From assembly GCA_030039155.1 (NCBI GenBank), contig JASHQL010000156.1:162-64161 (forward strand): a DNA stretch of 64,000 nt, given 5' to 3'. Position numbers and translations under genes: made by a program. Of this stretch, positions 27,907-46,322 are shown in pieces. The stretch comes from Streptosporangiaceae bacterium. GTDB lineage: Bacteria; Actinomycetota; Actinomycetes; Streptosporangiales; Streptosporangiaceae. Below the pieces are notes generated by a model that saw nothing but the letters and a program-made list of their open reading frames with translations, did no database searches and was not told the DNA's origin. Position 1 is the stretch's first letter; each line of letters begins with the position of its first letter.

Positions 27907-29843
27907 CCGAAGCGGGCTGCAAGCGACTCAGCCTCGGTCCTTGCGCCGTCGATCGTCTGCCCTAGCGCCAGCGAAGGGCGATGCCGTACCGCCGAGCACT
28001 CCAGGCAGAAAGCTTCAAGCAACTCCTCCGGCACCGATGCGGGAATGACAGGCGTGTAGTCGGTCACGAGTGACAGCATCCGGCCGTCGATTGGCAGCAG
28101 CCAGCCCAGGCTCACCAACCTGTCAATGACTGGCAGCGCTTCGTGCTCGGACAACCCGCTGGTCAGGTCGGCCAGCCTTACGCCGCGGTCTGCGCGCTGC
28201 AGGATCTCCAGCGTGCAGCCGTCGATGCGGTCCCTGGCGATAGTTGCGACTGGTCGTGTATCGAAAACCCAGCAGCCGTCCGGTTTCTCAACCCGTAGCA
28301 GAGCGCTTGACTCGTAGCTCGCTTGCCAGTCGTCCACTAGCTCGCGCAGGACCCGCCCGTACTCTTCCGGATCCTTGCCCCCGTCGGGCACAAAGTCAAA
28401 ATAATAGACCAGGTCATTCAGATCATCCATTGGATGACCATAAATGTACTGATATGGCTCCGGTGGCCAGCGCCTGGCCACGCCTAGCGCTCGTCCATTG
28501 AAGTCAAGCGGGCTAAAGCGATCGAGTCGCACGCGGCATGCAAATGGCGGCCGCAGATGATGGAGCATCGGAAGTATCTTGAACATCTCGAGATAGTCTT
28601 GCATGTCTTCTCGAGGGAAGCCGTAGAGCAGGTTCCACATCGGGCGGATGCCCAGTTCTTCACACCATTTCAACAGGCGGATGTTGTGGTAAGCGTCAAC
28701 GCCCTTCCGCATCAGTTTCAGGATCGGCGTGCTGAGGCTCTCGATGCCTGGCTGAACGCACCGTATCCCGGCACTATGCATCAGTTCGACCTGTTCACGG
28801 GTCACTTTCGACTTGATCTCATAGAAGATCTTGGCGGGAAGCTTGCGCTCGGCGAGCGCAGGCAGCAGCGTCCGGAAATAGTGGAAGTCCAGAATGTTGT
28901 CGACCGCATTCACGTTGTTGACGCCGTATTGCAGGGCTGACTCAATATCGTGGATAACGCGCTCCGGGCTCTTGCTGCGGAAGAACAAACTGTCGCCGTT
29001 AAGGCCGCAGAATGTGCAGTGTTGCTGGGCTCCATACCAGCATCCGCGACTGGTCTCGATCGGGATCTCGATGTCACCGCCGGACAGCGGCAGGCGTGCC
29101 TGCTCAATTTGCCTGAACCAGTCCTCGTACCGAGGCGTCGGCAGCGCGTCGAGGTCCTGCCACCTGGCAGGTTTACGGGCTTTCGGCTGAGCGCTGGACA
29201 GCATTCCTGGTATCTGTGTCTCGGGACTGCCGGCGTCGTCAAGGTGCTGGGCCAGGTTCAGGAGCGCGGTTTCGCCTTCGCCGGGGCAGACGTAGTCCAC
29301 GGCGGGGAAGAGTCGCAGCACAGACTCGCCCATGACGTCCTCACATGACGCGCCACCGAGCACAATCTTGGACCGGCCGCCCAGCATCTTGAGGCGCTCC
29401 GCCATCGCCAGGCTTGGCGCGAGGTTGAAGGTCGTGTTGAATCCGACGAGATCGAAGTCGCCTTTGGCGATGCCGAGGCTTTCGTCGCGCACCAGATCGC
29501 GTGCCTCTGCGGCCAGATCTGGGAGTATGTTGATGAGCCATTCCGGTACATTCTTTGCCAGCAGGTGACGTTCGATGACCAGACGCATCGCCGGTTCGAT
29601 TTCGTCGCCATGGCCGGGCCACATGGCCGAGAAAACCATCTCGCCGTATAGCGTCTCTGCAGGCATCTGCTCGGAAGCCATGCGGTAGAGATTCAGTCCG
29701 ATGCGGCGAGCGTACTCGACGTTGAGGTACCTGATCTCGGCAGTGTGGCCGTTCGCCTCCAGGACGCCCCGCAGCAGGCTCAGAGCGATTGATGGTCGGC
29801 TGACTGACTGGAATGGCATTTGCACCAAGACTACGTTGGCCAT
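27834..29843 (-). CDS. B12-binding-domain radical SAM enzyme, RiPP-maturation (C-methyltransferase-like) type, paralog 1
   Basis: Trimmed to ATG at 29843 (MANVVLVQMPFQ). Rossmann-like N-terminal half (KIVLGGASCE). Cluster motif GCWYGAQQHCTFCGLNG. About two-thirds identical by eye to 41517..43475. Confidence 0.85.
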   Translation of the reverse strand: MANVVLVQMPFQSVSRPSIALSLLRGVLEANGHTAEIRYLNVEYARRIGLNLYRMASEQMPAETLYGEMVFSAMWPGHGDEIEPAMRLVIERHLLAKNVPEWLINILPDLAAEARDLVRDESLGIAKGDFDLVGFNTTFNLAPSLAMAERLKMLGGRSKIVLGGASCEDVMGESVLRLFPAVDYVCPGEGETALLNLAQHLDDAGSPETQIPGMLSSAQPKARKPARWQDLDALPTPRYEDWFRQIEQARLPLSGGDIEIPIETSRGCWYGAQQHCTFCGLNGDSLFFRSKSPERVIHDIESALQYGVNNVNAVDNILDFHYFRTLLPALAERKLPAKIFYEIKSKVTREQVELMHSAGIRCVQPGIESLSTPILKLMRKGVDAYHNIRLLKWCEELGIRPMWNLLYGFPREDMQDYLEMFKILPMLHHLRPPFACRVRLDRFSPLDFNGRALGVARRWPPEPYQYIYGHPMDDLNDLVYYFDFVPDGGKDPEEYGRVLRELVDDWQASYESSALLRVEKPDGCWVFDTRPVATIARDRIDGCTLEILQRADRGVRLADLTSGLSEHEALPVIDRLVSLGWLLPIDGRMLSLVTDYTPVIPASVPEELLEAFCLECSAVRHRPSLALGQTIDGARTEAESLAARFGYDLVSSGYCAGSAPMTARHSTKK

Positions 29844-29892
29844 CGATTTTCGCCTTTCCTGCCGCGGGAAGCTTGCTGCTCGGGAGCCCGGC

Positions 29893-31245
29893 TCATGCTG
29901 CCCGCTGCCAGCCGATGCCGTCAGCGGACGGGACCAGGCTGCCCGGCACGACGGCCACAGCGCCCTGGCTGGCCGCTGTGCGGGCAGCGTAGGAATGCTC
30001 GGAGTCACCTGGAACGAGTGCGGGATCGTCAGAAGCTGCACCACCGACGAGTTCTATGAACGCGACAATGTCCGCCAGAGCCGAGCCGGTGAGCCGCTTC
30101 GCCGCCCAGAAGTACGAATGCTCGCTGAGACTCTCGATATAGAACGCTCTGAGGAACTGATAGAAAAACCTGTATTCTGTTCGGTACCTGCGTTCGAACT
30201 CGGCCAGTGCCTGCTCTTCCGGGATCGCGCCGGCCAGGCTGCTGTTGATGGCCCGTGCGGCCAGCAGCGCCCCATAAGTGGCCAGGTGGACACCGGAGGA
30301 GAGAACCGGGTCAACGAAGCACGCGGTGTCGCCGACTAGGACCATGCCAGGCCGGTGAAAGCGATCGTGGCAATACGAGTAGTCGCGCCGGATGCGGACG
30401 TGCCCGTAGGGTCCGTCGGTGACGCGGCTTGCGGTCGACAGATATTGCCTGATCAGCGGGCAGGACGCGATGAGCCCGGCGAGGGCGCCAGCTGGATCTC
30501 CCTGGATGCTGGGCGCGAGGTCACCGGGGATCACCGCGCCGACGCTGGTCAGGGTCGCACTGAGCGGGATGTACCAGAACCAGCCGTTGTCGAATGCTAC
30601 CGACAGGATGTTGCCGGAGTGCGGCTCGGGCAGCCGCTTCCCGTTCTCGAAGTAGCCGAACACGGCGATGTTGCGGAAGAAGTCCGAATAGTGACGCTGA
30701 CCTGCCATCCGGCGATAGATCCGGCTGCGGTGCCCGCAGGCGTCGGCGACGAACCTGGCCAGGGCGGTACGCACCCGGCCGTCATCGTCGGTGTACCTGA
30801 TGCCTTGCACCCGACTCTGCCCGACGACGATGTCAATCGCTGAACATCCTTCATGCACGTCAACCCCGGCGCGCCGGGCGTTGTTGAGGAGGATGGCATC
30901 GAACCGCATCCGTTCGACCTGGTAGGCGTAGGAATTGCCGTGCGAGAAGGCGGGCAGGTCGCGAAATTCGAACGTCCATGGCTCAGGGTTGCTGCCCCAT
31001 CTGAATGTTCCGCCATGCTTCACGATGAAACGGCCGGCTTCAAGTTCGTCGCTAACACCGAGGAGGCGGCATATCCCATGGACAGTGGCCGGCAGCAAAG
31101 ACTCACCGATCTGATATCGCGGGAAGTGCTCCTTTTCCAGCAGCAGAACCCGCTGACCTCGCATGGCCACCAGTGCGGCCAGAGTCGCGCCGGCCGGCCC
31201 GCCGCCAGCCACGATCAGGTCATACCGCTCAGAGGCCAGCGTCAC
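29893..31245 (-). CDS. flavin-dependent halogenase
   Basis: RBS AGGGAG, then GTG at 31245. YDLIVAGGGPAG FAD motif, FPRYQIGESLLP, and the halogenase signature GWFWYIPL (WxWxIP). Confidence 0.8.
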   Translation of the reverse strand: MTLASERYDLIVAGGGPAGATLAALVAMRGQRVLLLEKEHFPRYQIGESLLPATVHGICRLLGVSDELEAGRFIVKHGGTFRWGSNPEPWTFEFRDLPAFSHGNSYAYQVERMRFDAILLNNARRAGVDVHEGCSAIDIVVGQSRVQGIRYTDDDGRVRTALARFVADACGHRSRIYRRMAGQRHYSDFFRNIAVFGYFENGKRLPEPHSGNILSVAFDNGWFWYIPLSATLTSVGAVIPGDLAPSIQGDPAGALAGLIASCPLIRQYLSTASRVTDGPYGHVRIRRDYSYCHDRFHRPGMVLVGDTACFVDPVLSSGVHLATYGALLAARAINSSLAGAIPEEQALAEFERRYRTEYRFFYQFLRAFYIESLSEHSYFWAAKRLTGSALADIVAFIELVGGAASDDPALVPGDSEHSYAARTAASQGAVAVVPGSLVPSADGIGWQRAA

Positions 31246-33772
31246 TGATGGCTCCCTCGATGTTGAGCGCACGGCAGCGCAGCGTACGCAGGATGTCGTC
31301 TTGGCCCTCGGTGAGCAGGCGGCGCAGGGCGGCGGGCGGATCGGTGGTGGCGATGTAGGCATCGGTCGCGTCCACTGTCTGCTGGCTGAATGGGCAGGCC
31401 GGATACAGGCCGGCGACGAAGTCTTGCGCCATTGCGGTTGGCCACGTGCGCCAGACCACATCGATCGCACTGAAATAGTCGTCCAGGTAGGGCTCGGTCA
31501 GCGCACGCTGGTCGGGGTAGGCAAACCCGGCCAGCAGCGCACGGAACAGCGCAAGCGGAAGCTCGCCGCTGGTTAGCTTCCGCCACGCGGCCCGCTTGGC
31601 ATCAGCTGCAGGTATCGCTGCGTGACACGTTGCGGCATGCCGTTCACCGGCATCGGTGGCATCGCGGCTCCGCTCGCGGTCGATCTGGCTGGCCCCGGCC
31701 TTACCCCTGCTGACCAACCTGGTCAGCAGCGTCCAGCGCAGGTCGGTGTCGACGAGCAGACCGCTCAGCGCAGCCGAGCCGTCCAGCAGGCCGGCTAGGA
31801 ACGCCAGGTCATCGTCGCGGGTGGCAACCTCGGCAAGCGCTCGCAGGTACGTGAGCTGAGTGTCTGATCCGGCGGGTGCCTGGCTGAGGAGCCCGCGCAG
31901 CGTCGTGGCAATCAGCTCGAGCCCGGTCTCCTGCCAGGCCGGGTCGGCGTAGCGCCTCACCGCCACGCCGGCCTGGCCGAGCAGAGCTTGCGCCATGCTC
32001 ACGTCGGGGACAGTGCCGACGCCTGAGGCGACGAGCTTGACATATTCGCGCGCTGCCATTTCTCCGTCTCGGCACATGTCCCAGGCGGCAGACCAGCACA
32101 ACGCGGCCGGGAGCGAGTCGGCGAAGCCGCCGATGTTGCCGAGAAGCGTGCGCAGCGACCGCTGGTCGAGCCTGATCTTGGCGTAGCTCAGGTCGTCGTC
32201 GTTCACCAGCAGCAGGTCTGGGCAGGATTCCCCGATCATCGCTGGCAACATCGTCAGTTCGCCGGCGACATCGACCTCGACTCGCCCGGTACGAGCCAGG
32301 GCACCGCATGACCGGTTGTACAGCCCGATGGCTATGCGGTGCGACCGCAGGACTGGGTGCTGTCGCGGAGCTTCCTGCAGGACGGCGAATGAGGTGAAGC
32401 GGCCGGCCTCATCGAGGGTGAACGATGGCCGCAAGGTATTGACCCCAGCAGTTTCCAGCCACTGCCGGGACCAGGAAGTTAGCTCACGGCCTGAGGCTGC
32501 CTCAAGTGCCGAGAGCAGGTCAGCCAGCGTCGCGTTTCCCCATGCGTGCGCGGCAAAGTACCTCCGCACGCCGACCAGGAAGTTCTCCCGACCCACCCAG
32601 GCGACAAGCTGTTTGAGCACAGCCGCGCCCTTGGCGTAGGTGATGCCGTCGAAATTGACCTCGACAGCTGCGATGTCCGGGATGTCGGCTGAGATCGGGT
32701 GCGTGGTGGCCAACTGGTCCTGGCGATACGCCCAGGCCTTGTAGAGCTGGGCGAACGTCGTCCATCCGGACGACCAGCGAGTAGCCTCCACCTCGGCAAG
32801 CGTGCCGGCCCAGGTCGCGAACGACTCATTCAGCCAGAGATCATCCCACCAGCGCATGGTGACCAGGTCGCCGAACCACATGTGCGCCATCTCATGCAGG
32901 ATGGTCTCCGCCCGGCCCTGGCGGACGAAGTCGGTGACCCTAGACCGGAAGAGGAACTGCTCGGTGAACGTCACGGCGCCAGGGTTTTCCATGGCGCCCT
33001 CTTTGAATTCCGGCACGAATAGCTGATCATACTTTCCGAACGGATACTTGGTCCCGAAGATATTGTGAAAGAAACCAAAGCCTTGCTTGGTGATCGTGAA
33101 AATCTCGTCCGGATCAAGATACTCGGCCAGCGACTGGCGGCAGAAAATGCCCAGCGGAATGCCGTCGCACTCGTCCTTTGCCAGGTGATAGGGACCCGCG
33201 GCGACCGCCGTGATGTAAGTTGGCATCGGCGGGGTAGCCGGGAACCTCCAGCAGATCCCGTCCTGAACTGGTTCGGTCAAGTCCGGCGCCATGTTAGAGA
33301 CCACGGTCCAGTCCGCTGGCGCGGTGACTGTGAAGGCGAAGCTGGCCTTCAGGTCGGGTTGATCGAAGCACGCATAGACCCGGTGCGCGTCGAACGCCTC
33401 AAGGTCGGAGTACAGGTACGCCCGACCGTCAGCCGGATCGATAAACCTGTGCAGTCCAGCGCCCGTGCGCGAATACTCGCATTCAGCGTCGACCGCGAGG
33501 ACATTCTCTGCGCACAGACCGGTCAGCGCTATGCGGTGGCCGTCGAATGCTGCCGGGTCCACCGGCTCGCCGTTCAGCGTGATGCGGTGAACGCCGGCGG
33601 CCGTCAAGTTCACGAAGGTCGTGGCATCAGGCGCGCGGCTGCTGAACCTGATCAGGCTTGACGATGCGAATGTGCCGGCCGCGCTGGTCAGGTCGAGGTC
33701 AACCTGGTACGAGTCGACCCGGACAAGCGCGGCACGCTGCCGCGCTTCCTGCAGGGTCAGGTCAGCTGACAT
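31229..33772 (-). CDS. pepN: M1-family aminopeptidase N
   Basis: GAMEN exopeptidase motif (EGAMENPG) and HEMAHMWFGDLVTMRWWDDLWLNESFA (HExxH-x18-E). 847 aa. Confidence 0.9.
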   Translation of the reverse strand: MSADLTLQEARQRAALVRVDSYQVDLDLTSAAGTFASSSLIRFSSRAPDATTFVNLTAAGVHRITLNGEPVDPAAFDGHRIALTGLCAENVLAVDAECEYSRTGAGLHRFIDPADGRAYLYSDLEAFDAHRVYACFDQPDLKASFAFTVTAPADWTVVSNMAPDLTEPVQDGICWRFPATPPMPTYITAVAAGPYHLAKDECDGIPLGIFCRQSLAEYLDPDEIFTITKQGFGFFHNIFGTKYPFGKYDQLFVPEFKEGAMENPGAVTFTEQFLFRSRVTDFVRQGRAETILHEMAHMWFGDLVTMRWWDDLWLNESFATWAGTLAEVEATRWSSGWTTFAQLYKAWAYRQDQLATTHPISADIPDIAAVEVNFDGITYAKGAAVLKQLVAWVGRENFLVGVRRYFAAHAWGNATLADLLSALEAASGRELTSWSRQWLETAGVNTLRPSFTLDEAGRFTSFAVLQEAPRQHPVLRSHRIAIGLYNRSCGALARTGRVEVDVAGELTMLPAMIGESCPDLLLVNDDDLSYAKIRLDQRSLRTLLGNIGGFADSLPAALCWSAAWDMCRDGEMAAREYVKLVASGVGTVPDVSMAQALLGQAGVAVRRYADPAWQETGLELIATTLRGLLSQAPAGSDTQLTYLRALAEVATRDDDLAFLAGLLDGSAALSGLLVDTDLRWTLLTRLVSRGKAGASQIDRERSRDATDAGERHAATCHAAIPAADAKRAAWRKLTSGELPLALFRALLAGFAYPDQRALTEPYLDDYFSAIDVVWRTWPTAMAQDFVAGLYPACPFSQQTVDATDAYIATTDPPAALRRLLTEGQDDILRTLRCRALNIEGAISDAGL

Positions 33773-33789
33773 CTCCGGTCCCTTCGTCC

Positions 33790-34434
33790 CTAGCTGGCGA
33801 GCAGCATTCGCACCGATCCCAGCAGCCTGAGCCCAGCCTGACGGCGCTCGCCTTCGGCCGCGCCCAGCAGTCGTGCCACCTCAATGAGGTCGCAGAGTTC
33901 GCTGGTGGCCGAGGTAAGCAGCGACCGCGCGGCCCGGCTCCGCTGCACGATCCGCAACGCCGCGGCGGACTGCGTCGCGAACAGCGATAGCAACTCCAGT
34001 TGGGTCAGCTGAGACCGGCTGAGCTGCTGAGAGTCAAGAACCTCGAGGACGCCGATGGGTTCCTCATCGCAGATCACCGGGCTCGCCATCAGCGTGGCCG
34101 GCACGTAGTTCGTGGACTCCGCGATCTCTTTGGCGAACCGGTCATCGCCGTCCAGGTTGTCGACGATGACTGGCTGGCCTGACTCGAGCACCCACCCGGC
34201 GATGCCCCTGCTGGCCGGAAACCGCGTCCCGACGAGGAAGTCTGCTCCTTCGCCGGCCACGGCCTCGAACACCAGGTCGCCACTCGCGGTGTCGAGCAGG
34301 AAGATCGAACTGGCCGCTGCGTCGAAGATGGCACGCGCGGTGAGCACCACTGAATCCAGGAGCATGCGCTGATCTTCTTCAGAATCGAGCACAGCCAGCG
34401 ACATTGCCGCAGCCAGGGCGTTGTTATTGGTCAT
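33790..34434 (-). CDS. GAF-domain protein with short helical C-terminal extension
   Basis: ATG at 34434 overlaps the S8 stop (ATGA). The GAF-like core runs from SSIFLLDTASGDLVFEAVAG through RGIAGWVLESGQPVIV to PIGVLEVLD. No ANTAR or HTH seen. Confidence 0.75.
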   Translation of the reverse strand: MTNNNALAAAMSLAVLDSEEDQRMLLDSVVLTARAIFDAAASSIFLLDTASGDLVFEAVAGEGADFLVGTRFPASRGIAGWVLESGQPVIVDNLDGDDRFAKEIAESTNYVPATLMASPVICDEEPIGVLEVLDSQQLSRSQLTQLELLSLFATQSAAALRIVQRSRAARSLLTSATSELCDLIEVARLLGAAEGERRQAGLRLLGSVRMLLAS

Positions 34435-35267
34435 CGGGCACCTCGCACATTCGCGGCCGTGAGGTACAGCATGTTCTTGACCTGGAAGGCGGTCAGCTCG
34501 GGATTCTTGCTCAGAATCAATGCGCAATAGCCGGCGATGTGCGGGGTGGCAAAGCTGTTTCCGGTGCAGCGGCGCGTGCCGCCGCCAAGCCATGCCACTT
34601 CCACGTCGACTCCGTGCGCGAAGAACTCAACAGGCGGATGCGGGTTATAGAAGAACTGGCCACTATCTCCGGTGTCATGGCTGCCGACGGAAATGACCGA
34701 GGAGAAGCGCCAGGGATAACTCTCGACTCTGAGGTTGTGCGCCGAGGCGACAAGCGCGGTCTTGCGGAAGTAAGCGTCGTCGGCCAGCACGCGAAGGGCA
34801 TCGGCAAATTTCTGCCTCGTCGTGGAGAGGCTGAGGTTGACGACGTCGAACCGCTGCGCTACGGCCCACGCCAAGCCAGCCATGAGGGCGTCGCCGGTGC
34901 CAGAAAGGCCATGACTCAGTACTCGGACGCTATGAATCTCGCAGTCCGGCGCTACCGAGCGCACGACGCCGGCGCACGCCGTACCGTGACCGCTCAGGTC
35001 GTCTGCTCCGACCGGCACAACTGCCCACCCGCCGTCGGCCTGCCGCTCGACGGCATGCGACCCCTGAACCGGCCCGACTCGTGGATGGCCGCCTTCTACG
35101 CCGCTGTCGACGATGCAGACGCGGACGCCACTTCCGGTAGCGTCGCCCCACGCCTCATGCGCAGTCACCGGAGATGGCCATCTGGTGGCCTCGGCCAGGT
35201 TTGCGCGATCGCGGCCGACGATGTTCCAGGTGAGGGGCGGCCTGGCCAGCCGCGTGGTGTCCATCAC
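34431..35267 (-). CDS. S8-family (subtilisin-like) serine peptidase without signal peptide
   Basis: Catalytic triad motifs VDSGV, HGTACAG and GNSFATPH. GTG at 35267 or ATG at 35264. The start overlaps the upstream stop. Confidence 0.85.
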   Translation of the reverse strand: MMDTTRLARPPLTWNIVGRDRANLAEATRWPSPVTAHEAWGDATGSGVRVCIVDSGVEGGHPRVGPVQGSHAVERQADGGWAVVPVGADDLSGHGTACAGVVRSVAPDCEIHSVRVLSHGLSGTGDALMAGLAWAVAQRFDVVNLSLSTTRQKFADALRVLADDAYFRKTALVASAHNLRVESYPWRFSSVISVGSHDTGDSGQFFYNPHPPVEFFAHGVDVEVAWLGGGTRRCTGNSFATPHIAGYCALILSKNPELTAFQVKNMLYLTAANVRGAR

Positions 35268-38200
35268 TACCTTCCTTCAAGCAGTTGCCGTGCCCAGCCG
35301 ACGCCCACGACATGCCCTTTCCGGCTGAACCACGTCGCTGCCTGCCTGGCCATGTCCGCTGAGCCTGCACGGTCGCCGAGGTCGTGCAAGGCGATGGCCG
35401 TATCCAGGCACGCTGTCGCCCGAACTTCCGGCGAGTCGGTGCGTCGCGAGGCGGCCAGCGCTAGCGCGGACAACTGGCCTACCTCGTGGGTCAGTCCCTG
35501 CCGTGCCATGGTGCGGGCCTGCACGCCGCGACGGTCGGCGGCCGCGGCAGGCATGTCGTCGGATACCGGCGCGAAAGCTAGCTCGGCCGCCTCCGCCAGG
35601 TGCCCGCGTAGCAACTGGATCCGAGCAAGGTCCCGCGCGGCCGTCTCGGTCAGCTGCAGGTCCCCGAGATCTTTGGAGTCGATGTATGCGCGCCGCACGA
35701 TGGACTCTGCCGACTCGAGGTCGCCGGCCATCAGCCGGGTCGCGCCGACGAAGATCGGCAGAGCCACGTGCGCGCGGGCGTTGTCGAGGCCGCTGACTAT
35801 GTGGCCGGCCTCAACGAGGAACGCGTGGGCCTGATCATGCTCGGCAGCCATGGCTGCCAGCATTGCCAGCGGACAGAGCAAGGCAGCTCGTACCGTGCGG
35901 TGCGTGACCGCGTGCGCGCCGAGCAGGTCCCTGCAGCGTGCGATCGCCTGTGCGGCAGCCAGCGGCCCTGCCCAGAGCGAGACGCCAAGCGCGCCGAGGA
36001 CTGTGGCCTGCTCAAGAGCGGCGTCCAGCCGGATCGCCTGGTCTAGGGCAAGGCTGAGGGCCCTGACGGCGCTGGCGTGCCGGCCCTTGCTCTGTTTCGC
36101 GACGCCAATTCGCAGCCAGGCCCTGGCGACTCCCAGGTAGTCGCCTGCCTGTTCGAAGACTGGCAGGGCCTGGCGGGCGGCCTTGACCGACGCGCTGAAC
36201 TGCCTGGGCTGGCCAAGGTAGGCAAGCTGCATTTCGGCATGCGCCTTGATGGCTGGATTGTGCCCGGCAAGTGCTCGGTCACGGGCAGCGGCGAGGTCTC
36301 GCCGCCCGGCCTCGATCTCGCCTGCCATCAGCGCGGCTTCACCCGCCCGCAGAAGCAGCTCGGCGAGACGCTGGTCGTCAGCCGCGCAGAGCTGCAATGC
36401 CCGTCCGAGCAATCCCGATGCGTGCCGCGGATCGCCGCTGCCGAGTGCACGATTGCCGGCTGACCGCAGCGCGTCGATGGCCCGGTCAGCTAGCTGACTG
36501 CGCGTCGCCTCGGGCGTTCCGACTTCCCTGCCGAGCAGCCATGCGCGCTCCCAGTGCGTGCCAGCGATCTCGGCGTCCCCGCCGCTGGCGCTCAACCAGG
36601 CTGCCAGCCGCTCATGTCCGGCGGCGCGCCATCCCTTCGGCATCGAGTCATAAGCGACCTCATGGATCAGAGCGCTGTCGAACCGGTAGGTGGCTGCAGG
36701 CCAGGCAGCGATCTGCCGGATCAGCCGACGCTGCACGAGCGCTGCCAGGCCCTTGGCCAGTCTCGCTGCCAAGTCATCTTCGGCAATGGCAGCGAGTTCT
36801 GCGGCCGTGAAGTCGCGTCCGACCACGGCGGCCAGCCCGAGGATCCTGCGCTCACTGGTGGCGAGCAGGTCCAGCCGGTAGGAGATCAGGCCGTTGATGC
36901 TGACCGGCATCGCCTCAGACGTGCCGCTTCTGGCGACGTTGATGACCTGTTCAAGGTAGAGCGGATTGCCCTCTGCCCGGGCCACCGCGCGTTCTGCCAG
37001 CTCGGCGTCGTGAGCCATCACTTCGTCGAGCTTGGCGGCCAGAACGCGGCAGTCATCATCGCTTAGCGGGCGCAGCATGTCGGCGCGAGCATTCGGTCGG
37101 TGGCCGTTTCGTGCCCGTTCCTGTGTGGGCGTCTCGGGGCGAGCAAGCCACAGCACGGTCACAGCGACTCCAGACAGCCGGGCAGCCAAGCCGTTGACCG
37201 CATTCACAAGCTCCTGGCCCGCCATGTGCATGTCATCGAGAACGAGCACAAGCGGCCGGCCCCTGCCGATCTCGCCGAGCACGCGGCGAAGAGCCCACAC
37301 GGTCTCTGCCGGCGAGATTCCGGGCGAGTCATCGGCCAGTAGTCCCGCCCGCAGCATCGCCAGCGCTTCGGCTACCTCGGCGTCAGGGTGCGTTGGCTGG
37401 TCCCACTGAGCCAGCAGCTTCCTGACTGCCTCGGCCAGCGCCAGCAGTGAGCCGCCGGTGCCATAACCAGGGCAACTGCCGTCGGCGACTAGGGCGCTGG
37501 CGGAACGGGCCCACGCCGTGAACTCAGCGGCCAGCCGAGACTTGCCGATCCCCGCGTCGCCGTACAGGGTCACCAGCTGGCAGCTGCAGTCGCGTACCGC
37601 CAGGCTGTATGCGTGCCGCAGCGCAGCCATCTCGTCCAGGCGGTTCACCATGGGCAGATCGAAGCGGCGCGGGATGGCTGGTGCCCCATCGCTCACGCTG
37701 ACAAGACGGCCAGGCGTGATCTGGTGCGCGAAGCCCTTCAGCGTCAGCGGAGCTGCCGCCTCCTGGTCGGCGACGCCGTCAAGAGCCTTGCGGGTGAGCG
37801 GGCCGAGCAGGATCTCCCCGGCGTTGGCATGTTGCTCGAGCCGCGCCGCCAGGTTCACGGTCTCGCCGGAAACGAGCGTTGCGGCTGCTGCCAGGTCGTA
37901 GGCTGCCACGACCGGCCCGGTGTTCACGCCAATGCGCACATCGAGAGTGACGTGCAGGTCCTTGGCAGCCTCGGCATTGAGGCCAACCAGCGCCTGCCGC
38001 ATCTGCGCAGCCGCTCGAACCGCGCGCAGCGCGTCGTCCTCGTGCACGACGGGAACTCCGAACACCGCCATCACCGCATCCCCGATGTACTTCTCGACCA
38101 CCCCGCCATGCCGCTCGATACAGCTGCTCATGAGGTCGAAGTACCGGAGCATGAGTTCGCGCAGGGGCTCGGGATCAAGGGCGCGGCTCAGTTCCGTGGA

Positions 38201-38335
38201 GCCGACCAGATCGCAGAACAGCACAGTGACGGTCTTGCGAATTGTCAGGCCCTGCTCCCGCCGAGCTCGTTCGCCGCACGACGGGCAGAACTTAGCCTTG
38301 GCCGGCAGCTCTGTCAGGCAGGTCGCGCAGAGCAC
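35267..38335 (-). CDS. zinc-ribbon / class III adenylate-guanylate cyclase / AAA(STAND) ATPase / TPR-like multidomain protein
   Basis: GTG at 38335. CATCLTELPAKAKFCPSCG. Cyclase motifs FCDLVGST, YIGDAVMAVFG, GVNTGPVV and GETVNLAARLE. Walker A GDAGIGKSRL and Walker B LVLVLDDMH. Long Ala/Leu-rich helical repeat tail. No C-terminal HTH. Confidence 0.85.
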   Translation of the reverse strand: MLCATCLTELPAKAKFCPSCGERARREQGLTIRKTVTVLFCDLVGSTELSRALDPEPLRELMLRYFDLMSSCIERHGGVVEKYIGDAVMAVFGVPVVHEDDALRAVRAAAQMRQALVGLNAEAAKDLHVTLDVRIGVNTGPVVAAYDLAAAATLVSGETVNLAARLEQHANAGEILLGPLTRKALDGVADQEAAAPLTLKGFAHQITPGRLVSVSDGAPAIPRRFDLPMVNRLDEMAALRHAYSLAVRDCSCQLVTLYGDAGIGKSRLAAEFTAWARSASALVADGSCPGYGTGGSLLALAEAVRKLLAQWDQPTHPDAEVAEALAMLRAGLLADDSPGISPAETVWALRRVLGEIGRGRPLVLVLDDMHMAGQELVNAVNGLAARLSGVAVTVLWLARPETPTQERARNGHRPNARADMLRPLSDDDCRVLAAKLDEVMAHDAELAERAVARAEGNPLYLEQVINVARSGTSEAMPVSINGLISYRLDLLATSERRILGLAAVVGRDFTAAELAAIAEDDLAARLAKGLAALVQRRLIRQIAAWPAATYRFDSALIHEVAYDSMPKGWRAAGHERLAAWLSASGGDAEIAGTHWERAWLLGREVGTPEATRSQLADRAIDALRSAGNRALGSGDPRHASGLLGRALQLCAADDQRLAELLLRAGEAALMAGEIEAGRRDLAAARDRALAGHNPAIKAHAEMQLAYLGQPRQFSASVKAARQALPVFEQAGDYLGVARAWLRIGVAKQSKGRHASAVRALSLALDQAIRLDAALEQATVLGALGVSLWAGPLAAAQAIARCRDLLGAHAVTHRTVRAALLCPLAMLAAMAAEHDQAHAFLVEAGHIVSGLDNARAHVALPIFVGATRLMAGDLESAESIVRRAYIDSKDLGDLQLTETAARDLARIQLLRGHLAEAAELAFAPVSDDMPAAAADRRGVQARTMARQGLTHEVGQLSALALAASRRTDSPEVRATACLDTAIALHDLGDRAGSADMARQAATWFSRKGHVVGVGWARQLLEGR

Positions 38336-38363
38336 GTCGGCTTCGCCTCTCGGTCGTCCGGCG

Positions 38364-39209
38364 TTACAAGAAGAGGCCGCCGGCGACGTCGCCGGAATGC
38401 GCCACGACGTCTGCACGGCCGGCTTGAAACTGCTCGATGTCGGCCAGCACCGCAGCCTCGCCATCAGACAGGCCGGGAAAGCGCGCCCTGGCGTCAGCTA
38501 TGGCTTCCTTCCTGTGCACCGCTATCTCGTCGGCGGGACTCCCGGCTGCGGGTTCGACGCTTGCCAGCTCAGCAAACAGCGCAATCGCCTTGCTCGCCGT
38601 GTGCAAAGCGCTGAACCCGACCAGTGCGCGCAGCCGCGGTTCAAGGGTCAACCGATCGAGCAAGGCGAAGACCGCTTGCCCGTGTGCTGCATCAGATGCC
38701 GAGTGCCCCGATAGGGCAGCCGTCACATCCTGGCGGCCGGTGGCGGCGCGGATGTGCTCGAGTAGCTGGTCTGCCGGGGGGTTGCCCTCAAGCACGGCGA
38801 GGCAGCCGAGCAGCGCGACCGGATGAACGTCGGCGATCAGCTGATACTGTGCGCCCAGCAGGTCGGTGATCGCCGGCGTCGGCAGCGCGCCGGTCGCCCG
38901 CGATGGGTCCTGGCCTAGCGCGGTCAGGTCGGCGATCACCCACCGGTCGTGACCCCGTTCCTCGCGGACGTGCTGGGTGAAGAAGCCGACAAGCGGCCCA
39001 TTGAGCTTGTCGCCTGGATGTTGCAGACATTGGCGACGAGCGAATCTCAGCAGCGGGACGGCAGCTCGCGCGACCGGATACATGGCGGTGAGGTAGCGAG
39101 CATACGCTGGAGCCAGATCTGGGCTGCGCCAGAACAGATCTGCGGCAATATCAATTGCCGGACGAGCTAGATCGATCTTAGCTCGCAGAATCTCGCCTTC
39201 TCCGGTCAC
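38364..39209 (-). CDS. heme-oxygenase-like iron-containing redox enzyme family protein (TenA/PqqC/HDO fold)
   Basis: GTG at 39209. The HVREERGHDRW motif (E-x2-H type metal ligands) and all-helical composition are typical of the Haem_oxygenase_2 / iron-containing redox enzyme family. Confidence 0.65.
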   Translation of the reverse strand: MTGEGEILRAKIDLARPAIDIAADLFWRSPDLAPAYARYLTAMYPVARAAVPLLRFARRQCLQHPGDKLNGPLVGFFTQHVREERGHDRWVIADLTALGQDPSRATGALPTPAITDLLGAQYQLIADVHPVALLGCLAVLEGNPPADQLLEHIRAATGRQDVTAALSGHSASDAAHGQAVFALLDRLTLEPRLRALVGFSALHTASKAIALFAELASVEPAAGSPADEIAVHRKEAIADARARFPGLSDGEAAVLADIEQFQAGRADVVAHSGDVAGGLFL

Positions 39210-39406
39210 CGGATGCCGACCTCACTACGCAGCCATGCCGATGAGACTGCATGTGGACTTTGTCGGCAGCGTATGAAATGTCGAGGCAGCGAAACTATCG
39301 GCCAATTGGCGGATTTCCGCAGAACAGTGTCCCCCCAGGCGGGGCGCACTCTCGGCCAGGTGGCGGGGGTCGGAACGGGGCCGGATGGGCCTGACAGCTA
39401 GCCTGA

Positions 39407-40042
39407 CTACTCGTCGGGCGCAGTCCTCATTATGATCTCCAGCCGACTATGCAGGCCTAACTTATCGAGGATGCTTTCGATATGGGACTTGACTGTTGAC
39501 CGCGCGATGGAAAGCGCATCAGCGATCTGCGGGTTCGTCATCCCGAGCCGCACCAGCTCAAAGACCTCCCGCTCCCGTCTGGTGAGCTTCCTGCCTGCGT
39601 TGTCCCGGTCGCTGTCAATCTCATCGAGGACGGCGGCGTGGGCGAGTACCTCGTCGACGCCATCGCGCGGAAGCGGCATGTAGCCCGCCATCATCAGTGA
39701 GGCCATGGCGGCCAGGTGACTGGACACCACCTTGCTTCTGATGATGACGCACAGTCCGCTGCGGATGAGTTTCGACGCCCAGTCGCTGGTGCTGGCAACC
39801 AGCACCAGCACTGGCACCGCCACGGCCTTGTCGGCGAGACTGAGCCGAAACAGCGAACCCGCAGTCTCCGCGGTAATCGTCTCCAGGCAGATGACATACA
39901 GGTCCGGTCTTGGCAAATCTGACAGTGGATCGATATTGCGGTCGGCAGCAACGACCTGGACCGCAACGTCGCTGACGCTGGCAAGGGCGTTCTGAACGCC
40001 GCTGAGAACGAACTCATCGTCCCCAGCGACGACTATGCGCAT
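39407..40042 (-). CDS. LuxR-family regulator with atypical receiver-like N-terminal domain
   Basis: RBS GGAGGAGG upstream of ATG at 40042. C-terminal HTH LTRREREVFELVRLGMTNPQIADALSIARSTVKSHIESILDKLG. N-terminus MRIVVAGDDEF is receiver-like. Confidence 0.85.
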   Translation of the reverse strand: MRIVVAGDDEFVLSGVQNALASVSDVAVQVVAADRNIDPLSDLPRPDLYVICLETITAETAGSLFRLSLADKAVAVPVLVLVASTSDWASKLIRSGLCVIIRSKVVSSHLAAMASLMMAGYMPLPRDGVDEVLAHAAVLDEIDSDRDNAGRKLTRREREVFELVRLGMTNPQIADALSIARSTVKSHIESILDKLGLHSRLEIIMRTAPDE

Positions 40043-40152
40043 CCCCTTCCGCCTCCTCCCCGTTTCCGGGTCAGCGAGTGACAGCGGGTGTTGCTAGCAG
40101 CATTCCTCCGTCGTGCCTATAGCCAGCTTGCCATCGGCAAGCATTCCGTCAA

Positions 40153-40169
40153 TACCGCCACTGGCGGTA
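40153..40169. promoter_or_regulatory. perfect 17-bp palindrome, candidate operator
   Basis: TACCGCCA-C-TGGCGGTA. Lies about 110 nt upstream of the LuxR start and just downstream of the MFS stop. The one-base centre is too small for a hairpin loop. Confidence 0.35.
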
Positions 40170-40201
40170 GCAATCCCGGCAATATAGCCTATATCATACG
40201 T

Positions 40202-41464
40202 TTAGGTAACAGCTTCCGGCTGCCCGCGCTGCTTCTTCTGCTCCGATCTCAACGTGCTGAGCTTGCGGGAGGCCAGCACGGCTGAGGCCATGGCTACTGC
40301 GACCGCGGCCACCCCGGCGATGACGAACGTTGGCCGCGGACCGAATGCCTGTCCTATCGTGCCGCCAAGCACCAGGGCCACGACCATGCCGACCTGAACA
40401 AGGCCATTGAGCGACGCGATTGCCTTGCCCCGGTCCGCCTCGGGAGTGCGGCCGATCAGCACCGCACCGAAAGTGGCGTTGAGCGCGGTATTCGCCAGGC
40501 CGATGAGGAGGCCGAAGCAGAGGTAGACCGCGAAGTCCGGGGACAGGCCTGCGCCGATGCAGCCGAGCCCGACGAGCGCGAATCCAGCGAAGGTGATGGT
40601 CACTTGCCACGTGACCGCCTTGGCCCTGGCCGCGACCACCGAGCCAGCCACTCCGCCGACCGCCGCGGCGATCTCCGATAGTCCGTACAGGGACGCAGAG
40701 GTATGCAGGGACACGCGGACGAGGAAGACATCGACGACGTTCACGCCGCCGATCACCACGATCGTCGCGGTGAGTGCCCACATCATCGGCCAGACTATTG
40801 CGTCCTGCCTGATCGCGGAGAAGCCAGCAAACACCCTGGTGAAGGCTCTGGCGGCAGACGGCCGAGTGATGCCTTCCCGGTGTCCGGAGCGACGGGTTTG
40901 CACCAGCATCGCAGCGCAGGTCAGCAGCGCAAACGTAGCGGTGTCGACGAGCACGGCGGTGCGCATGCCAGTCAGTCCGAACAGCAGCCCGCCCAGGCCG
41001 GCACCGGCTGGGGCACCGACCGCGGCAAGACCGGACTGCAAGGCCACGAAGCTGCCGATCTTGTCTTCGCCCACGACTCTGGGCATCAGCGCCGTCCAGG
41101 TGGGCACAGTGAACGCCTGGCCAACCTGGATGGCGAAGACGAGCAGGAATACCGCGACCAGGTCGGAGGTGAAGGCAAGCGCGCAGCAGGCTAGCGTCTG
41201 CGCCGCCGTCGCGATGGCGAGCACGGTCCTGGAGTCGTAGGTGTCCGCAACATGGCCTGCGATACCTATCAGCAGCACCAGTGGCAGTGACTCCACGCCC
41301 AGCATCACTGCCACTGGCCAGATACCGATATGGGCACGCTCGAGGTACAGCAGCAACACGATGGCCAGCACGCTGTCCCCGAGCAGCGAGACGGCACGCG
41401 CCGGTACCACGATCCGGACATCGCGGATGCGCCAGAGCTGTCGTGGCGGGGCCTGCTCGGTCAC
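40202..41464 (-). CDS. MFS transporter
   Basis: GTG at 41464, 9 nt after RBS GGAAGGAG. About 12 hydrophobic helices, for example LLGDSVLAIVLLLYL and GVAAVAVAMASAVLA. Confidence 0.8.
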   Translation of the reverse strand: MTEQAPPRQLWRIRDVRIVVPARAVSLLGDSVLAIVLLLYLERAHIGIWPVAVMLGVESLPLVLLIGIAGHVADTYDSRTVLAIATAAQTLACCALAFTSDLVAVFLLVFAIQVGQAFTVPTWTALMPRVVGEDKIGSFVALQSGLAAVGAPAGAGLGGLLFGLTGMRTAVLVDTATFALLTCAAMLVQTRRSGHREGITRPSAARAFTRVFAGFSAIRQDAIVWPMMWALTATIVVIGGVNVVDVFLVRVSLHTSASLYGLSEIAAAVGGVAGSVVAARAKAVTWQVTITFAGFALVGLGCIGAGLSPDFAVYLCFGLLIGLANTALNATFGAVLIGRTPEADRGKAIASLNGLVQVGMVVALVLGGTIGQAFGPRPTFVIAGVAAVAVAMASAVLASRKLSTLRSEQKKQRGQPEAVT

Positions 41465-41516
41465 CTCACTCACCTCCTTCCTGGCCGGTCCGGCCGGGTC
41501 GCGGTGCCGAGCGGCT

Positions 41517-43475
41517 TCAGGGCACCGGCAGGTAGTCCGGCCGCCGTGCCAGCAGTGACCGGGCATCCGCCAGGTCAGCCGGTGAACCGGGCAGTACGCT
41601 CGAGATCGCGCGATGACGGATGGTGGCTAGCTCTAGGCAGTAGTCCTCCAGCAAGCCTGGGGGCAGCGACTTGGGGACCACGGGCGTGTAGTTGACGATC
41701 AGCGAGAGGATCCGGTCATCCACCTCGAGCAGCCAACCGATGTCCAGCAGCCCGGCTAGGGCTTTGACGCCAGCATCCCCTGCCCCGTCAAGCAGGTCGG
41801 CACGGCGCACACCGCGGTCGGACCGCTGGACGAGGTCAAGCTCGAGCGGCTCGAGGCAGCGCCGTGCCACCAGCGCGCCTGGCCTGGTATCAAACACCTG
41901 GCATCCGTCTGGCGTCTCGGCGCGCAGCAGTGCGCTGCCCGGATACTCGTCGCGCCACTCCTGCACGATCGAGTTCAGCACTACCCCATACTCTTCAGGG
42001 TTGTTGCCGTCGTCCGGTTCGAACTCAAAGTAGTAGGCCAGGTCGTCCAGTGCTGAGTCCGGCAGGCCGTAGACGAGCCGGTAAGCCCTGGACGGCCTGC
42101 GGTTGGCGACCCCCAGGGCCTTCCCGTCAAAGTGCAGCGGGCTGAACCGGTCCAGGCGCACCCGCCCGCCGGCTTCCGGCGGCTGCAGGTGGAAGAGTCG
42201 AGGCAGCATGCCGAACATTTGCAGGTAATCCTGCTTGCGCTCACGCGGGAACCCGTACAGCAGGTTCCAGGTCGCGGCAATGCCCAGCTCCTCTCCCCAT
42301 TTGAGCAGCCGGATGTTGTGGTACGCCTGCACACCCTTGCGCATGAGCATGAGCACCGGCGTGCTCATGCTCTCAATCCCCGGCTGAACGCTGCGGATGC
42401 CCGCCCGGCGCATGAGCACCAGCTGATCCCTGGTGACCTTGGACTTGATCTCATAGAACAGGTGCGCAGAGTGCTCGCGTTTGGCCAGTTCCGGTAGCAC
42501 CGTGCGGAAGTAACGGAAATCAAGGATGTTGTCCACCGCGTGTACGTTCTGGATACCGTACGAAAGCGCGGCGTGGATCTCCCGCAGCACATTGTCCGGG
42601 CTCTTGCTGCGGAACTGGAGGTTCTCTCCGTTCAGCCCGCAGAAGGTGCAATGCTGCTGCGCCCCGTACCAGCAGCCCCGGCTGGTCTCGATCGGGATCA
42701 GCAGCTCTGACTCCGCTATGCCGAGGTCGGCGCGGGCGAGCTGGCCAAGCCAGTCTTCAAACCGCGGCTGCGGCAACGCGTCCAGGTTCTGTGGCGGAAC
42801 AGGCCTGGCAACGCTCGGATGCGCGCGGGACAGCATCCCGGGGATGGCCGTGGCGTCGTCGGCGTGCCGTGCGATGGCGTTCGCCAGATTGAGCAGCGCC
42901 TGCTCGCCTTCGCCTGGGCAGACGTAGTCCACCCAGGGAAAGAGTCGCATCACGGCCGCGCCCATGCCCGCTTCGCAGGAGGCGCCGCCGAGCACAACCG
43001 GCACGCTCGGGTTGGCCGCCTTGAAATAGCGGGCCATCGACAGACTAGGCGCCAAGTTGAAGGTGGTGCTGAAGCATACGAGGTCGAAGCGGCGGTCGAT
43101 GATCTTCCGGCTCTCGGTACTGACGAGGTCGCGTGCCTCCGCCACCAGCGCAGGCAGGAGCTGCCCGATCCACGGGGGAACCCGCTTCCAGGCCGAATAG
43201 CGCGCTAGCTCCTCAGGGCTAGGCTCCCGGTCCTGCCCATCAGGATCCAGCCAGACCGGGGCGAACACGAGGTCGCTGAGGAGAATGTCGGCAGGCAGCC
43301 GCTCAGAGATCGTGGTGTAGAGGTTGACGCCGATGCGGCGGGCGAACTTCATGTTCAGGTAGCTGATTTCGACTATGTGGCCGTGCTGCTCGAGCACCGC
43401 TCGCAGCAGGCTCGGGCCGAGCGCGGGCCTGCGGACAGCCTGGAACGGCATCTGCGGGAACAAGATCCTGGTCAT
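41517..43475 (-). CDS. B12-binding-domain radical SAM enzyme, RiPP-maturation type, paralog 2
   Basis: MTRILFPQMPFQ, VVLGGASCE and GCWYGAQQHCTFCGLNG. Collinear similarity to 27834..29843 along the whole length. Confidence 0.85.
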   Translation of the reverse strand: MTRILFPQMPFQAVRRPALGPSLLRAVLEQHGHIVEISYLNMKFARRIGVNLYTTISERLPADILLSDLVFAPVWLDPDGQDREPSPEELARYSAWKRVPPWIGQLLPALVAEARDLVSTESRKIIDRRFDLVCFSTTFNLAPSLSMARYFKAANPSVPVVLGGASCEAGMGAAVMRLFPWVDYVCPGEGEQALLNLANAIARHADDATAIPGMLSRAHPSVARPVPPQNLDALPQPRFEDWLGQLARADLGIAESELLIPIETSRGCWYGAQQHCTFCGLNGENLQFRSKSPDNVLREIHAALSYGIQNVHAVDNILDFRYFRTVLPELAKREHSAHLFYEIKSKVTRDQLVLMRRAGIRSVQPGIESMSTPVLMLMRKGVQAYHNIRLLKWGEELGIAATWNLLYGFPRERKQDYLQMFGMLPRLFHLQPPEAGGRVRLDRFSPLHFDGKALGVANRRPSRAYRLVYGLPDSALDDLAYYFEFEPDDGNNPEEYGVVLNSIVQEWRDEYPGSALLRAETPDGCQVFDTRPGALVARRCLEPLELDLVQRSDRGVRRADLLDGAGDAGVKALAGLLDIGWLLEVDDRILSLIVNYTPVVPKSLPPGLLEDYCLELATIRHRAISSVLPGSPADLADARSLLARRPDYLPVP

Positions 43476-43495
43476 CGCTCCATCGCTGCTGCACG

Positions 43496-45268: not shown

Positions 45269-45272
45269 CTCG

Positions 45273-46241: not shown

Positions 46242-46322
46242 CGCACGATGCCTTCCGCGGTCCGATGGCAAGTGTTTTGGATCAGGTAACCCTCAGCAAG
46301 CAGTGATGTACCTGGCGCGTTC

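Follow-up and report, generated by a model that had tools for sequence, protein, structure and literature searches.

In a 64,000-nt stretch of DNA from a Streptosporangiaceae bacterium (contig JASHQL010000156.1, assembly GCA_030039155.1; the whole stretch is referred to as the window), three tightly packed minus-strand genes encode a cyclase-STAND protein, a cytoplasmic subtilase of the S8 family and a stand-alone GAF protein (Table 1). We show that in related loci the invariant core of this cassette is the S8–GAF pair rather than the triad, and that small peptides encoded in the differing neighbourhoods of the pair share an acid-rich [VI]-x-[AG]-H motif (V-x-A-H tag). We tentatively favour a model, built from sequence and comparative data, in which the S8 protease would carry out tag-directed peptide processing, the GAF protein would be its ligand-sensing partner and the cyclase-STAND protein would supply a cyclic nucleoside monophosphate (cNMP) signal, with this messenger coordinating cytoplasmic cleavage with export.

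The protease–GAF pair and a common peptide tag

Relatives of the S8 protein were scanned in one genome per species, which gave at least 561 matches, and the cassette thus occurs in hundreds of genomes of actinobacteria. The best 80 of these, plus eight loci fetched by protein look-up (88 loci), were analyzed, and neighbouring genes were located by six-frame hidden Markov model (HMM) searches and a tblastn survey. The GAF gene lay beside the S8 gene in nearly all loci with neighbouring DNA present, and immediately downstream of it wherever the tblastn survey placed a GAF gene. The two genes overlapped by 4 nt in 33 of the 51 measured junctions, and most of the other junctions overlapped by 8–32 nt. 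A cyclase-STAND gene was detected in 46 of 84 loci, and was directly upstream and on the same strand in ∼30 of them. The initial annotation had expected the triad to be conserved as a unit. The triad indeed recurs in many genomes, but the unit that is conserved is the S8–GAF pair, with a cyclase-STAND gene in about half of the loci.

The commonest arrangement adds to the cassette a haem-oxygenase-like gene, a radical SAM gene and a small peptide of its own. In the Streptomyces-type order, genes for a radical SAM/SPASM protein, a haem-oxygenase-like protein and a 60–96-aa aroma-sacti peptide are followed by cyclase-STAND, S8 and GAF, and a reverse test starting from one aroma-sacti peptide led back to this same set of genes. 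In the Gaiellales-type order, genes for an extracytoplasmic function (ECF) sigma factor, an 85-aa NHLP-like protein and an FTCD_C protein are followed by S8, GAF and a major facilitator superfamily (MFS) exporter with a cNMP-binding domain; such loci often encode a separate cNMP-binding protein in addition, and in some of them a cyclase-STAND gene is close by. The context of the window, with B12-radical-SAM and M1 aminopeptidase genes, was observed only there and in two other loci (L002 and L084), and other close relatives of the window S8 were in YcaO/azoline or LanM clusters. All of the closest relatives (69–80% identity; the closest named one is from Streptosporangiaceae bacterium NEAU-GS5) were in clusters for RiPPs (peptides made by the ribosome and modified after translation) of differing chemistry. 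Given the variety of these clusters, the cassette is portable rather than specific to the cluster of the window. Co-occurrence with RiPP genes, as raised by the initial annotation, was observed in the sense that the S8–GAF pair stands beside tagged precursors in most loci, but it is not tied to the B12-radical-SAM type of cluster.

In the Streptomyces-type loci, the separately encoded peptides upstream of the cyclase gene passed the NCBIfam model for aroma-sacti peptides (NF045560; 69.8 bits vs. a cutoff of 30). This model covers the peptide domain only, and a related tail is fused to the haem-oxygenase-like gene in the window. No cluster-specific NCBIfam model matched the representatives of the radical SAM and haem-oxygenase-like proteins or the cyclase, S8 and GAF proteins of the window, and no paper on an aroma-sacti cluster was found in the open-access literature. 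In two loci the S8 gene had no GAF gene downstream: L003 (10001–10834; S8 77% identical to that of the window), in a cluster with a halogenase and a P450, and L086 (10001–10807; 71% identical), in a cluster with a YcaO protein and a B12 radical SAM enzyme. A search with the tag pattern found no tagged peptide in L003 or L086.

The tag was strongly enriched. In the six frames of the loci, [DE][VI]x[AG]H occurred 329 times, compared with 125 times for the reversed motif and ∼80 expected from composition. Open reading frames (ORFs) of ≤200 aa with at least two copies of the motif were present in 38 loci vs. 1 for the control. The acid-rich version gave 153 motifs in 68 of 89 loci, whereas its reversed-motif control gave 17 motifs in 13 loci, and the last acid-rich motif was a median of 18 residues from the stop codon. 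Since the S8 protease is the constant element beside peptides whose only common feature is the tag, it would, on the simplest reading, be the enzyme that recognizes the tag and cuts there.

The tagged peptides differ in kind. The aroma-sacti peptides end in EPEVQAH-SEIAGGALF and a stop codon, and the window precursor and its orthologues in EESDLVTAH-MMDQSAIRVGAVYVS and a stop codon; class III lanthipeptide-like precursors contain ESDVEAH-SAVSEAGSTVSLAACA; multi-core Cys peptides carry EEPEVIAH ahead of each core; and Gaiellales-type repeat peptides read DEQDVEGH RNKAI...EEPDVEAH RFKA (L018) or contain four DVEAH repeats (L008). Two tagged peptides are present in the window, the NHLP-type precursor and the tail of the haem-oxygenase-like ORF. 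The orthologues of the former in L002 and L084 keep the tag, and their core MMDQSAIRVGAVYVS is nearly identical.

The repeat peptide of nearly all Gaiellales-type loci comes from a small unannotated ORF placed exactly between the GAF and MFS genes, divergent from the exporter. These genes lie at 5467–5661 (minus strand) in L018, at 11486–11812 (minus strand) in L008 and at similar positions in ∼35 other loci, and were uncalled in the six loci inspected. They encode 2–5 copies of an acidic spacer plus D-V-E-A/G-H, then short basic segments, and some peptides end in 3–5 residues (RFKA, RHKA, IRR, IKR). Class III lanthipeptide-like precursors with an EVEAH tag were observed beside RamC-type synthetases in L087 (5399–5852, minus strand), L076 and L042.

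The Gaiellales-type arrangement bears on another possible role of the pair. In the CalpL/CalpT/CalpS system a second messenger activates a protease, which frees an ECF sigma factor. By analogy, S8–GAF could be a signal-activated regulatory protease that cuts a regulator, e.g., an anti-sigma-like small protein, a role that we consider quite improbable. In its favour, an ECF sigma gene (45 loci), the conserved 85-aa NHLP-like protein (43 loci) and the FTCD_C protein come ahead of the pair in Gaiellales-type loci, and the 85-aa protein has no conserved C-terminal core, so that it is not an obvious RiPP precursor. However, no ECF sigma gene is part of the cassette in the window or in the Streptomyces-type loci, the closest S8 relatives are inside biosynthetic clusters, the VxAH tag is missing from most post-sigma small proteins, and tagged peptides with obvious cores are present instead. 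The post-sigma 85-aa protein (L005–L082; e.g., L080 9056–9313) has an N-terminal LPPAPxxWVxAAQELP and a C-terminal NHLP/‘Frankia_peptide’-like domain, and no conserved core peptide was found in it. Given its place after the ECF sigma gene, it might be anti-sigma-like. It was considered as a general S8 substrate and dropped, since most copies lack the tag and a conserved core.

The three proteins and the proposed signal route

The second protein of the triad matched Peptidase_S8 (PF00082) with 93 bits (2.5e-26). Its residues D54, H94, N178 and S238 were invariant in 24 homologues and correspond, in the alignment with subtilisin BPN′, to D32, H64, N155 and S221, so the catalytic triad is intact, as read initially, together with the oxyanion Asn. 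The N-terminus has no hydrophobic segment, in keeping with the absence of a signal peptide noted initially, and a prodomain is also absent. The predicted model had a TM-score of ∼0.67 to subtilisins. The calcium-A loop (BPN′ residues 75–83) is naturally deleted in the family (near protein residue ∼100), and for this reason the best fold matches were engineered calcium-independent subtilisins. The same 75–83 deletion is the one made by protein engineers to obtain calcium-independent subtilisins and peptiligases. Loss of the calcium loop would suit a cytoplasmic enzyme. The S1 pocket is remodelled, with Gly154 replaced by an invariant His and the floor residues 161–166 deleted (about protein residues 179–186), which would fit an unusual P1 residue. 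The family comprises at least 7995 database proteins at E ≤ 1e-10, most of them of 270–290 aa.

The third protein (214 aa) matched Pfam GAF (2.4e-16), and its predicted model (mean predicted local distance difference test score 82) consists of a GAF fold followed by three helices. The cyclic AMP (cAMP)-bound GAF domain of Lcd1 (5W10) was the best fold match (E 4e-11) and the second-best sequence match (E 1.4e-12), behind CyaB2 (1YKD). Further matches were the cNMP-binding GAF domains of the phosphodiesterases (PDEs) PDE2 (1MC0) and PDE10 (2ZMF), and the fold matches also included the non-nucleotide GAF domains of PtsP, fRMsr, DevS and NreA. The family is strongly conserved around FAxxxAESTxYVP, with Ala105 and Pro112 invariant. 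The NKFDE motif had not been seen in the initial annotation. In fact its N, F and E are kept, and only K and D are lost.

Other genes of the related loci point to a cNMP as well. MFS exporters fused to a cNMP_binding domain (PF00027) adjoin S8–GAF in other loci, with the domain present in all 39 high-scoring MFS matches, and stand-alone cNMP-binding proteins also occur. No PF00027 reader was found by HMM search near the cyclase-bearing loci, which leaves the GAF protein as the sole local candidate reader there. In these loci the cNMP theme is robust: it is carried by the cyclase, the PF00027 domains of the exporters, cNMP-binding proteins encoded on their own and the GAF protein, which has a cAMP-binding domain as its nearest solved relative.

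The long ORF of the first gene (38464–35267; 1065 aa) holds every motif quoted in the initial annotation (CATC...CPSC, FCDLVGST, YIGDAVMAVFG, GVNTGPVV, GETVNLAARLE, GDAGIGKSRL and LVLVLDDMH). Pfam placed Guanylate_cyc at residues 77–235 (3.6e-22) and AAA_16 at residues 275–431 (4.7e-17), and with the Peptidase_S8 and GAF matches the domain architecture of all three proteins is as first described. A C-terminal helical region is likewise present, but its assignment as tetratricopeptide-like (TPR-like) repeats is weak (TPR_12 17.3 bits vs. a cutoff of 30.1), and homologues show faint TPR_12 and TPR_MalT matches. No GerE/LuxR helix-turn-helix (HTH) domain was found by Pfam in the 1065-aa ORF or in the inspected homologues, in agreement with the earlier reading; the output of the protein would therefore be only a nucleotide, and not DNA binding.

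The closest solved relatives of the cyclase were Cya2 (2W01) and CyaB (3R5G). Conservation was counted across 35 homologues from related loci. Both metal-binding Asp residues (FCDLVG and IGDAV) and the substrate Lys were kept in 34 of 35, and the transition-state residues in TVNLAARLE in 34 (Asn) and 35 (Arg). The Lys of Walker A (GIGKS/T) was present in 35 of 35, and Walker B was DD or ED. By these residues the cyclase looks catalytically competent. Canonical adenylyl cyclases have Asp or Thr at the second substrate-specifying position; the window protein has Thr there, most homologues have Ala, Val or Arg, with Ala the commonest, and a conserved Leu comes next. In L085 (15334–16666, minus strand) the cyclase and AAA_16 regions were annotated as two short genes of 201 and 254 aa beside an intact S8–GAF pair, which suggests that this cyclase-STAND gene is decayed or frameshifted.

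In the route that we tentatively favour, the cytoplasmic S8 protease would recognize precursor peptides and cut them at the acid-rich V-x-A-H tag; its candidate substrates in the window are the NHLP-type precursor and the peptide tail on the haem-oxygenase-like gene. The GAF protein, made in step with S8 through the overlapping codons, would license or restrain cleavage on sensing its ligand. The helical-repeat and NTPase part of the cyclase-STAND protein would sense a cue, and the protein would then make a cyclic nucleotide, most likely cAMP. This cNMP would be read by the GAF protein in the window, and in related loci by the cNMP-binding domain on the MFS exporter, and cleavage inside the cell would thereby be coordinated with export.

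Several observations weigh against this route. (i) The PDE-type contact motif FxxxVDxxTGYxT is FAxxIAESTxYVP in the GAF family, with only the first Thr kept and the Asp and second Thr lost (mapped on what we take to be the PDE2A contacts); since the motif is only partly kept, the GAF ligand may not be a cyclic nucleotide. (ii) The nucleotide made by the cyclase is uncertain, because the second substrate-specifying position is non-canonical. (iii) S8 genes without a GAF gene occur (L003 and L086), and no S8–GAF fusion was found: the 120 listed GAF homologues were all stand-alone (∼215 aa), five GAF matches of odd length had no S8 domain, and the matches of a profile search against 1.8 billion representatives were mostly giant proteins with many GAF domains. 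(iv) The tag is N-terminal to the LELQ leader motif in L087, not at the core boundary, and in the repeat peptides it recurs between the short basic segments. As it is not always at the leader–core boundary, the tag could be a docking/recognition mark and not the scissile site, or it may mark a first cleavage. (v) The strict tag was not found in 21 of 89 loci; contig truncation affects many of these, although not L001.

Some of these points would also be expected if S8 were a RiPP processing protease that is not gated through a cNMP and the GAF protein. The GAF protein might then bind the product peptide or a metabolite, or replace the prodomain as a ligand-independent inhibitor/chaperone, and the cyclase-STAND protein would be a pathway regulator that acts via the general cAMP network. 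The loss of the Asp and second Thr, the non-nucleotide GAF domains among the fold matches, the absence of a local cyclase gene in about half of the loci, the missing prodomain of S8 and the two S8 genes without GAF are consistent with this alternative, which we regard as somewhat unlikely. A cAMP-bound GAF domain is, however, the best fold match and the second-best sequence match, the cyclase loci have no nearby PF00027 reader and so leave GAF as the only local candidate, and cNMP-binding exporters recur beside S8–GAF where the cyclase is absent.

Gating of tag cleavage by a cNMP could be taken further. In a bolder reading, which appears rather unlikely at present, one messenger would license both peptide-release steps: the GAF-controlled subtilase would cut the tag, and the messenger would also open the cNMP-gated MFS exporter in related loci. 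The cue for the STAND cyclase could possibly be the tagged precursor itself, perceived via the TPR-like region. If true, this would define a general actinobacterial RiPP leader protease for at least five precursor families (NHLP/proteusin-like, aroma-sacti, class III lanthipeptide-like, multi-core Cys and unmodified repeat peptides).

The initial annotation had left peptide maturation and defence as two endpoints of the pathway. If the cassette were a Pycsar- or STAND-type module for conflict or phage defence, an invader would be sensed by the STAND part, the cyclase would make a cNMP, GAF–S8 would be a suicide/effector protease and the location in this island would be coincidental. PADLOC matched PycC models to the cyclase domain (E down to 2e-19) and a generic ‘subtilase’ model to S8, the G+C content of the region is below that of its flanks, and conflict systems that pair STAND NTPases with cyclase or peptidase partners have been described (PMC7159879). 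The PycC matches cover only the generic cyclase fold, however; the GAF protein has no PADLOC match, the window contains no effector of the Pycsar type, and the triad is not described in that eLife survey (PMC7159879). Instead of defence genes, the surroundings consistently contain genes for biosynthesis, peptides or exporters, and the Gaiellales-type arrangement is syntenic beside housekeeping-like genes (e.g., XseA-like). Defence was rejected as the main explanation on the grounds of the generic PADLOC matches and appears extremely improbable, whereas maturation, with tagged precursors in most loci, fits the comparative data far better.

Gene anatomy and the surrounding cluster

The cyclase stop codon TAG (35269–35267) shares its G with a GTG (35267–35265), giving TAGTG, and the ATG of the GAF gene (34434–34432) overlaps the TGA of the S8 gene (34433–34431), giving ATGA at 34434–34431. 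Both stop/start overlaps reported initially are thus present, but a true overlap of the cyclase and S8 genes is less likely. The likelier S8 start, judged from sequence context, is the ATG at 35264, 2 nt past the cyclase stop, which is favoured by a GGAAGG Shine–Dalgarno sequence 5 nt upstream, by better spacing and by the match to the 277-aa database twin P0001. With this start the two genes do not overlap, yet they are still tightly coupled; depending on the start, their junction is an overlap of 1 nt or a gap of 2 nt. The true start of the cyclase gene is most likely GTG 38335, as had been assumed: it lies 28 nt past the stop codon TAA of the upstream gene, GAGAGG is upstream of it, and the zinc ribbon begins there as in homologues.

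Table 1. Coordinates of the genes, domains and peptides of the triad and of its neighbourhood in the window.
Feature	Coordinates	Strand	Remarks
Zn-ribbon/class III nucleotide cyclase/AAA_16 STAND NTPase/helical-repeat gene	35267–38335	−	1022 aa from GTG 38335; no HTH domain
Zinc ribbon CxxC...CxxC, N-terminal	38264–38329	−	weak Pfam Zn_Ribbon_1 and DZR_2; four Cys kept in 29/35 homologues
Class III cyclase catalytic domain	37760–38236	−	PF00211, 79 bits; D, D, K, N, R conserved
AAA_16 (STAND-type) P-loop NTPase	37172–37642	−	PF13191, 63 bits
C-terminal helical region, TPR-like	35270–36787	−	presumed sensor; weak sub-cutoff TPR_12
Cytoplasmic S8 subtilase gene	34431–35264	−	no signal peptide, prodomain or calcium loop; alternative GTG start 35267
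Stand-alone GAF gene with three-helix C-terminal extension	33790–34434	−	translationally coupled to the S8 gene via ATGA
M1 zinc aminopeptidase gene	31229–33772	−	17 nt downstream of the GAF gene; position conserved in L002 and L084
Haem-oxygenase-like (PF14518) iron enzyme gene	38364–39209	−	directly upstream of the cyclase gene; same place in ∼22 loci
Aroma-sacti-like peptide fused in frame to the haem-oxygenase-like C-terminus	38367–38492	−	ends in RADVVAH SGDVAGGLFL and stop; DVVAH tag 38397–38411
LuxR/GerE-type regulator gene	39407–40042	−	two genes upstream of the cyclase gene
MFS_3-type exporter gene	40202–41566	−	111 bits on the MFS-cNMP HMM; cNMP-binding domain absent
NHLP-clan RiPP precursor, 76 aa	46323–46553	−	GTG start, GAGGAG Shine–Dalgarno; ends in EESDLVTAH MMDQSAIRVGAVYVS and stop; tag 46371–46388

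The genes from 46553 down to 27834 are all on the minus strand and closely spaced, and a scan between the haem-oxygenase-like and B12 radical SAM genes found no convincing terminator. The order begins with the NHLP-clan precursor, a YydG-like radical SAM enzyme, an ApyD-like B12 radical SAM enzyme, a TIGR03975 C-methyltransferase and the MFS exporter. It continues with the LuxR-type regulator, the separate gene that the initial annotation had placed two genes upstream, the haem-oxygenase-like iron enzyme, the triad, the M1 aminopeptidase, an FAD halogenase-like enzyme and a second TIGR03975 enzyme. This order places the triad in the middle of a proteusin-like RiPP cluster. The cluster (27834–46553) looks complete; its three B12 radical SAM enzymes include two TIGR03975 C-methyltransferases (531 and 549 bits vs. 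a cutoff of 282), and its G+C content is 0.61–0.68 vs. 0.70–0.73 in the flanks. The M1 aminopeptidase is a possible second, trimming protease.

The NHLP precursor was borderline on NF038399 (39.5 bits vs. a cutoff of 40); the sequence just before MMDQSAIRVGAVYVS, tag included, is NISEVEESDLVTAH. An HMM of the stand-alone peptides of relatives aligned to residues 240–280 of the haem-oxygenase-like ORF (8.8 bits, E 8e-5), so the window carries this peptide either as an in-frame enzyme–precursor fusion or as a nested gene. The sequence ahead of SGDVAGGLFL in this tail is QFQAGRADVVAH. The ORF is of 281 aa, compared with 220–250 aa in relatives, and its C-terminal tail reads LSDGEAAVLADIEQFQAGRADVVAH SGDVAGGLFL before the stop codon.

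Significance and relation to known systems

There are known examples of S8 leader peptidases, of cyclase-ATPase proteins and of GAF domains that bind cAMP. No paper on the S8–GAF pair, on its link to the cyclase or to cNMP exporters, or on the V-x-A-H tag was found among open-access papers, and a RiPP processing protease with this set of sensor and partner proteins and a tag common to several RiPP classes would be unprecedented. Leader removal is a practical bottleneck in RiPP natural-product work, and the protease for many actinobacterial RiPP clusters (class III/IV lanthipeptides, NHLP-type) is unknown or encoded outside the cluster (PMC8960859, PMC10885120). A testable candidate for this step would be a subtilase that is small, cytoplasmic and independent of calcium and whose recognition tag is simple and portable; such an enzyme might also serve as a tool for core release in heterologous hosts. 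The conserved link among GAF, STAND-cyclase and cNMP-exporter genes suggests that peptide maturation and export may be under post-translational second-messenger control, of which no description was found in searchable papers, and such control would provide a concrete role for some of the numerous orphan cyclase-ATPases in actinomycetes. The tag is a new genome-mining handle for small precursor genes overlooked by gene callers.

Among S8 RiPP peptidases, the best NCBIfam match of the window protein was QhpE (quinohemoprotein amine dehydrogenase maturation protease; 102.4 bits vs. a cutoff of 165), a small cytoplasmic subtilase that removes the leader from a radical-SAM-modified peptide. The window S8 resembles QhpE in its small size and cytoplasmic location, and shares with QhpE, LanP enzymes (e.g., NisP) and PatA/PatG the subtilisin fold, the intact D/H/N/S set and a place inside peptide biosynthetic clusters. 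It is, however, below the QhpE equivalog cutoff, and no QhpA, QhpC or QhpD context is present. It also differs from the known enzymes in having no prodomain, signal peptide or calcium loop, in its remodelled S1 pocket, in its coupling to a GAF gene and in a tag that extends across unrelated precursors; these differences were not found described for known RiPP S8 peptidases in the open-access literature.

The GAF protein has Lcd1 of Leptospira, a cAMP-dependent diguanylate cyclase, as its top fold and second sequence match. The GAF domain of Lcd1 is fused to an output domain, whereas that of the window is a separate protein with three extra helices and is presumed to have a protease as its partner.

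Like the Rv0386-type cyclase-ATPase-LuxR proteins of mycobacteria, the cyclase-STAND protein has a class III cyclase at its N-terminus, with an AAA_16 STAND NTPase and helical repeats after it. In contrast to them, it has no C-terminal GerE/LuxR HTH, has an extra N-terminal zinc ribbon and keeps the substrate Lys (Rv0386 has Gln and Asn at the substrate positions). The cyclase and STAND-like region also aligns to positions 282–933 of the 1267 in TIGR03903 (‘TOMM system kinase/cyclase fusion protein’), but the protein is not a member (150 bits vs. a cutoff of 705.75) and has no kinase domain (no Pkinase match). As TIGR03903 is named for RiPP (TOMM) clusters, it is an annotation-level precedent for a cyclase-STAND protein in a RiPP cluster.

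With CalpL/CalpT/CalpS and Pycsar the proposed route would share its logic, in which a sensor enzyme makes a nucleotide messenger and a binding domain, on reading it, controls a protease or membrane protein. The likeness to CalpL/CalpT/CalpS extends to the ECF sigma genes that adjoin S8–GAF in many relatives. The two-gene Pycsar unit, PycC plus an effector with a cNMP-binding domain fused to TIR or transmembrane segments, is not matched by the window. Both systems differ from the cassette in the enzyme that makes the messenger, in the sensor domain and in the protease family, and the window has no CRISPR or defence context.

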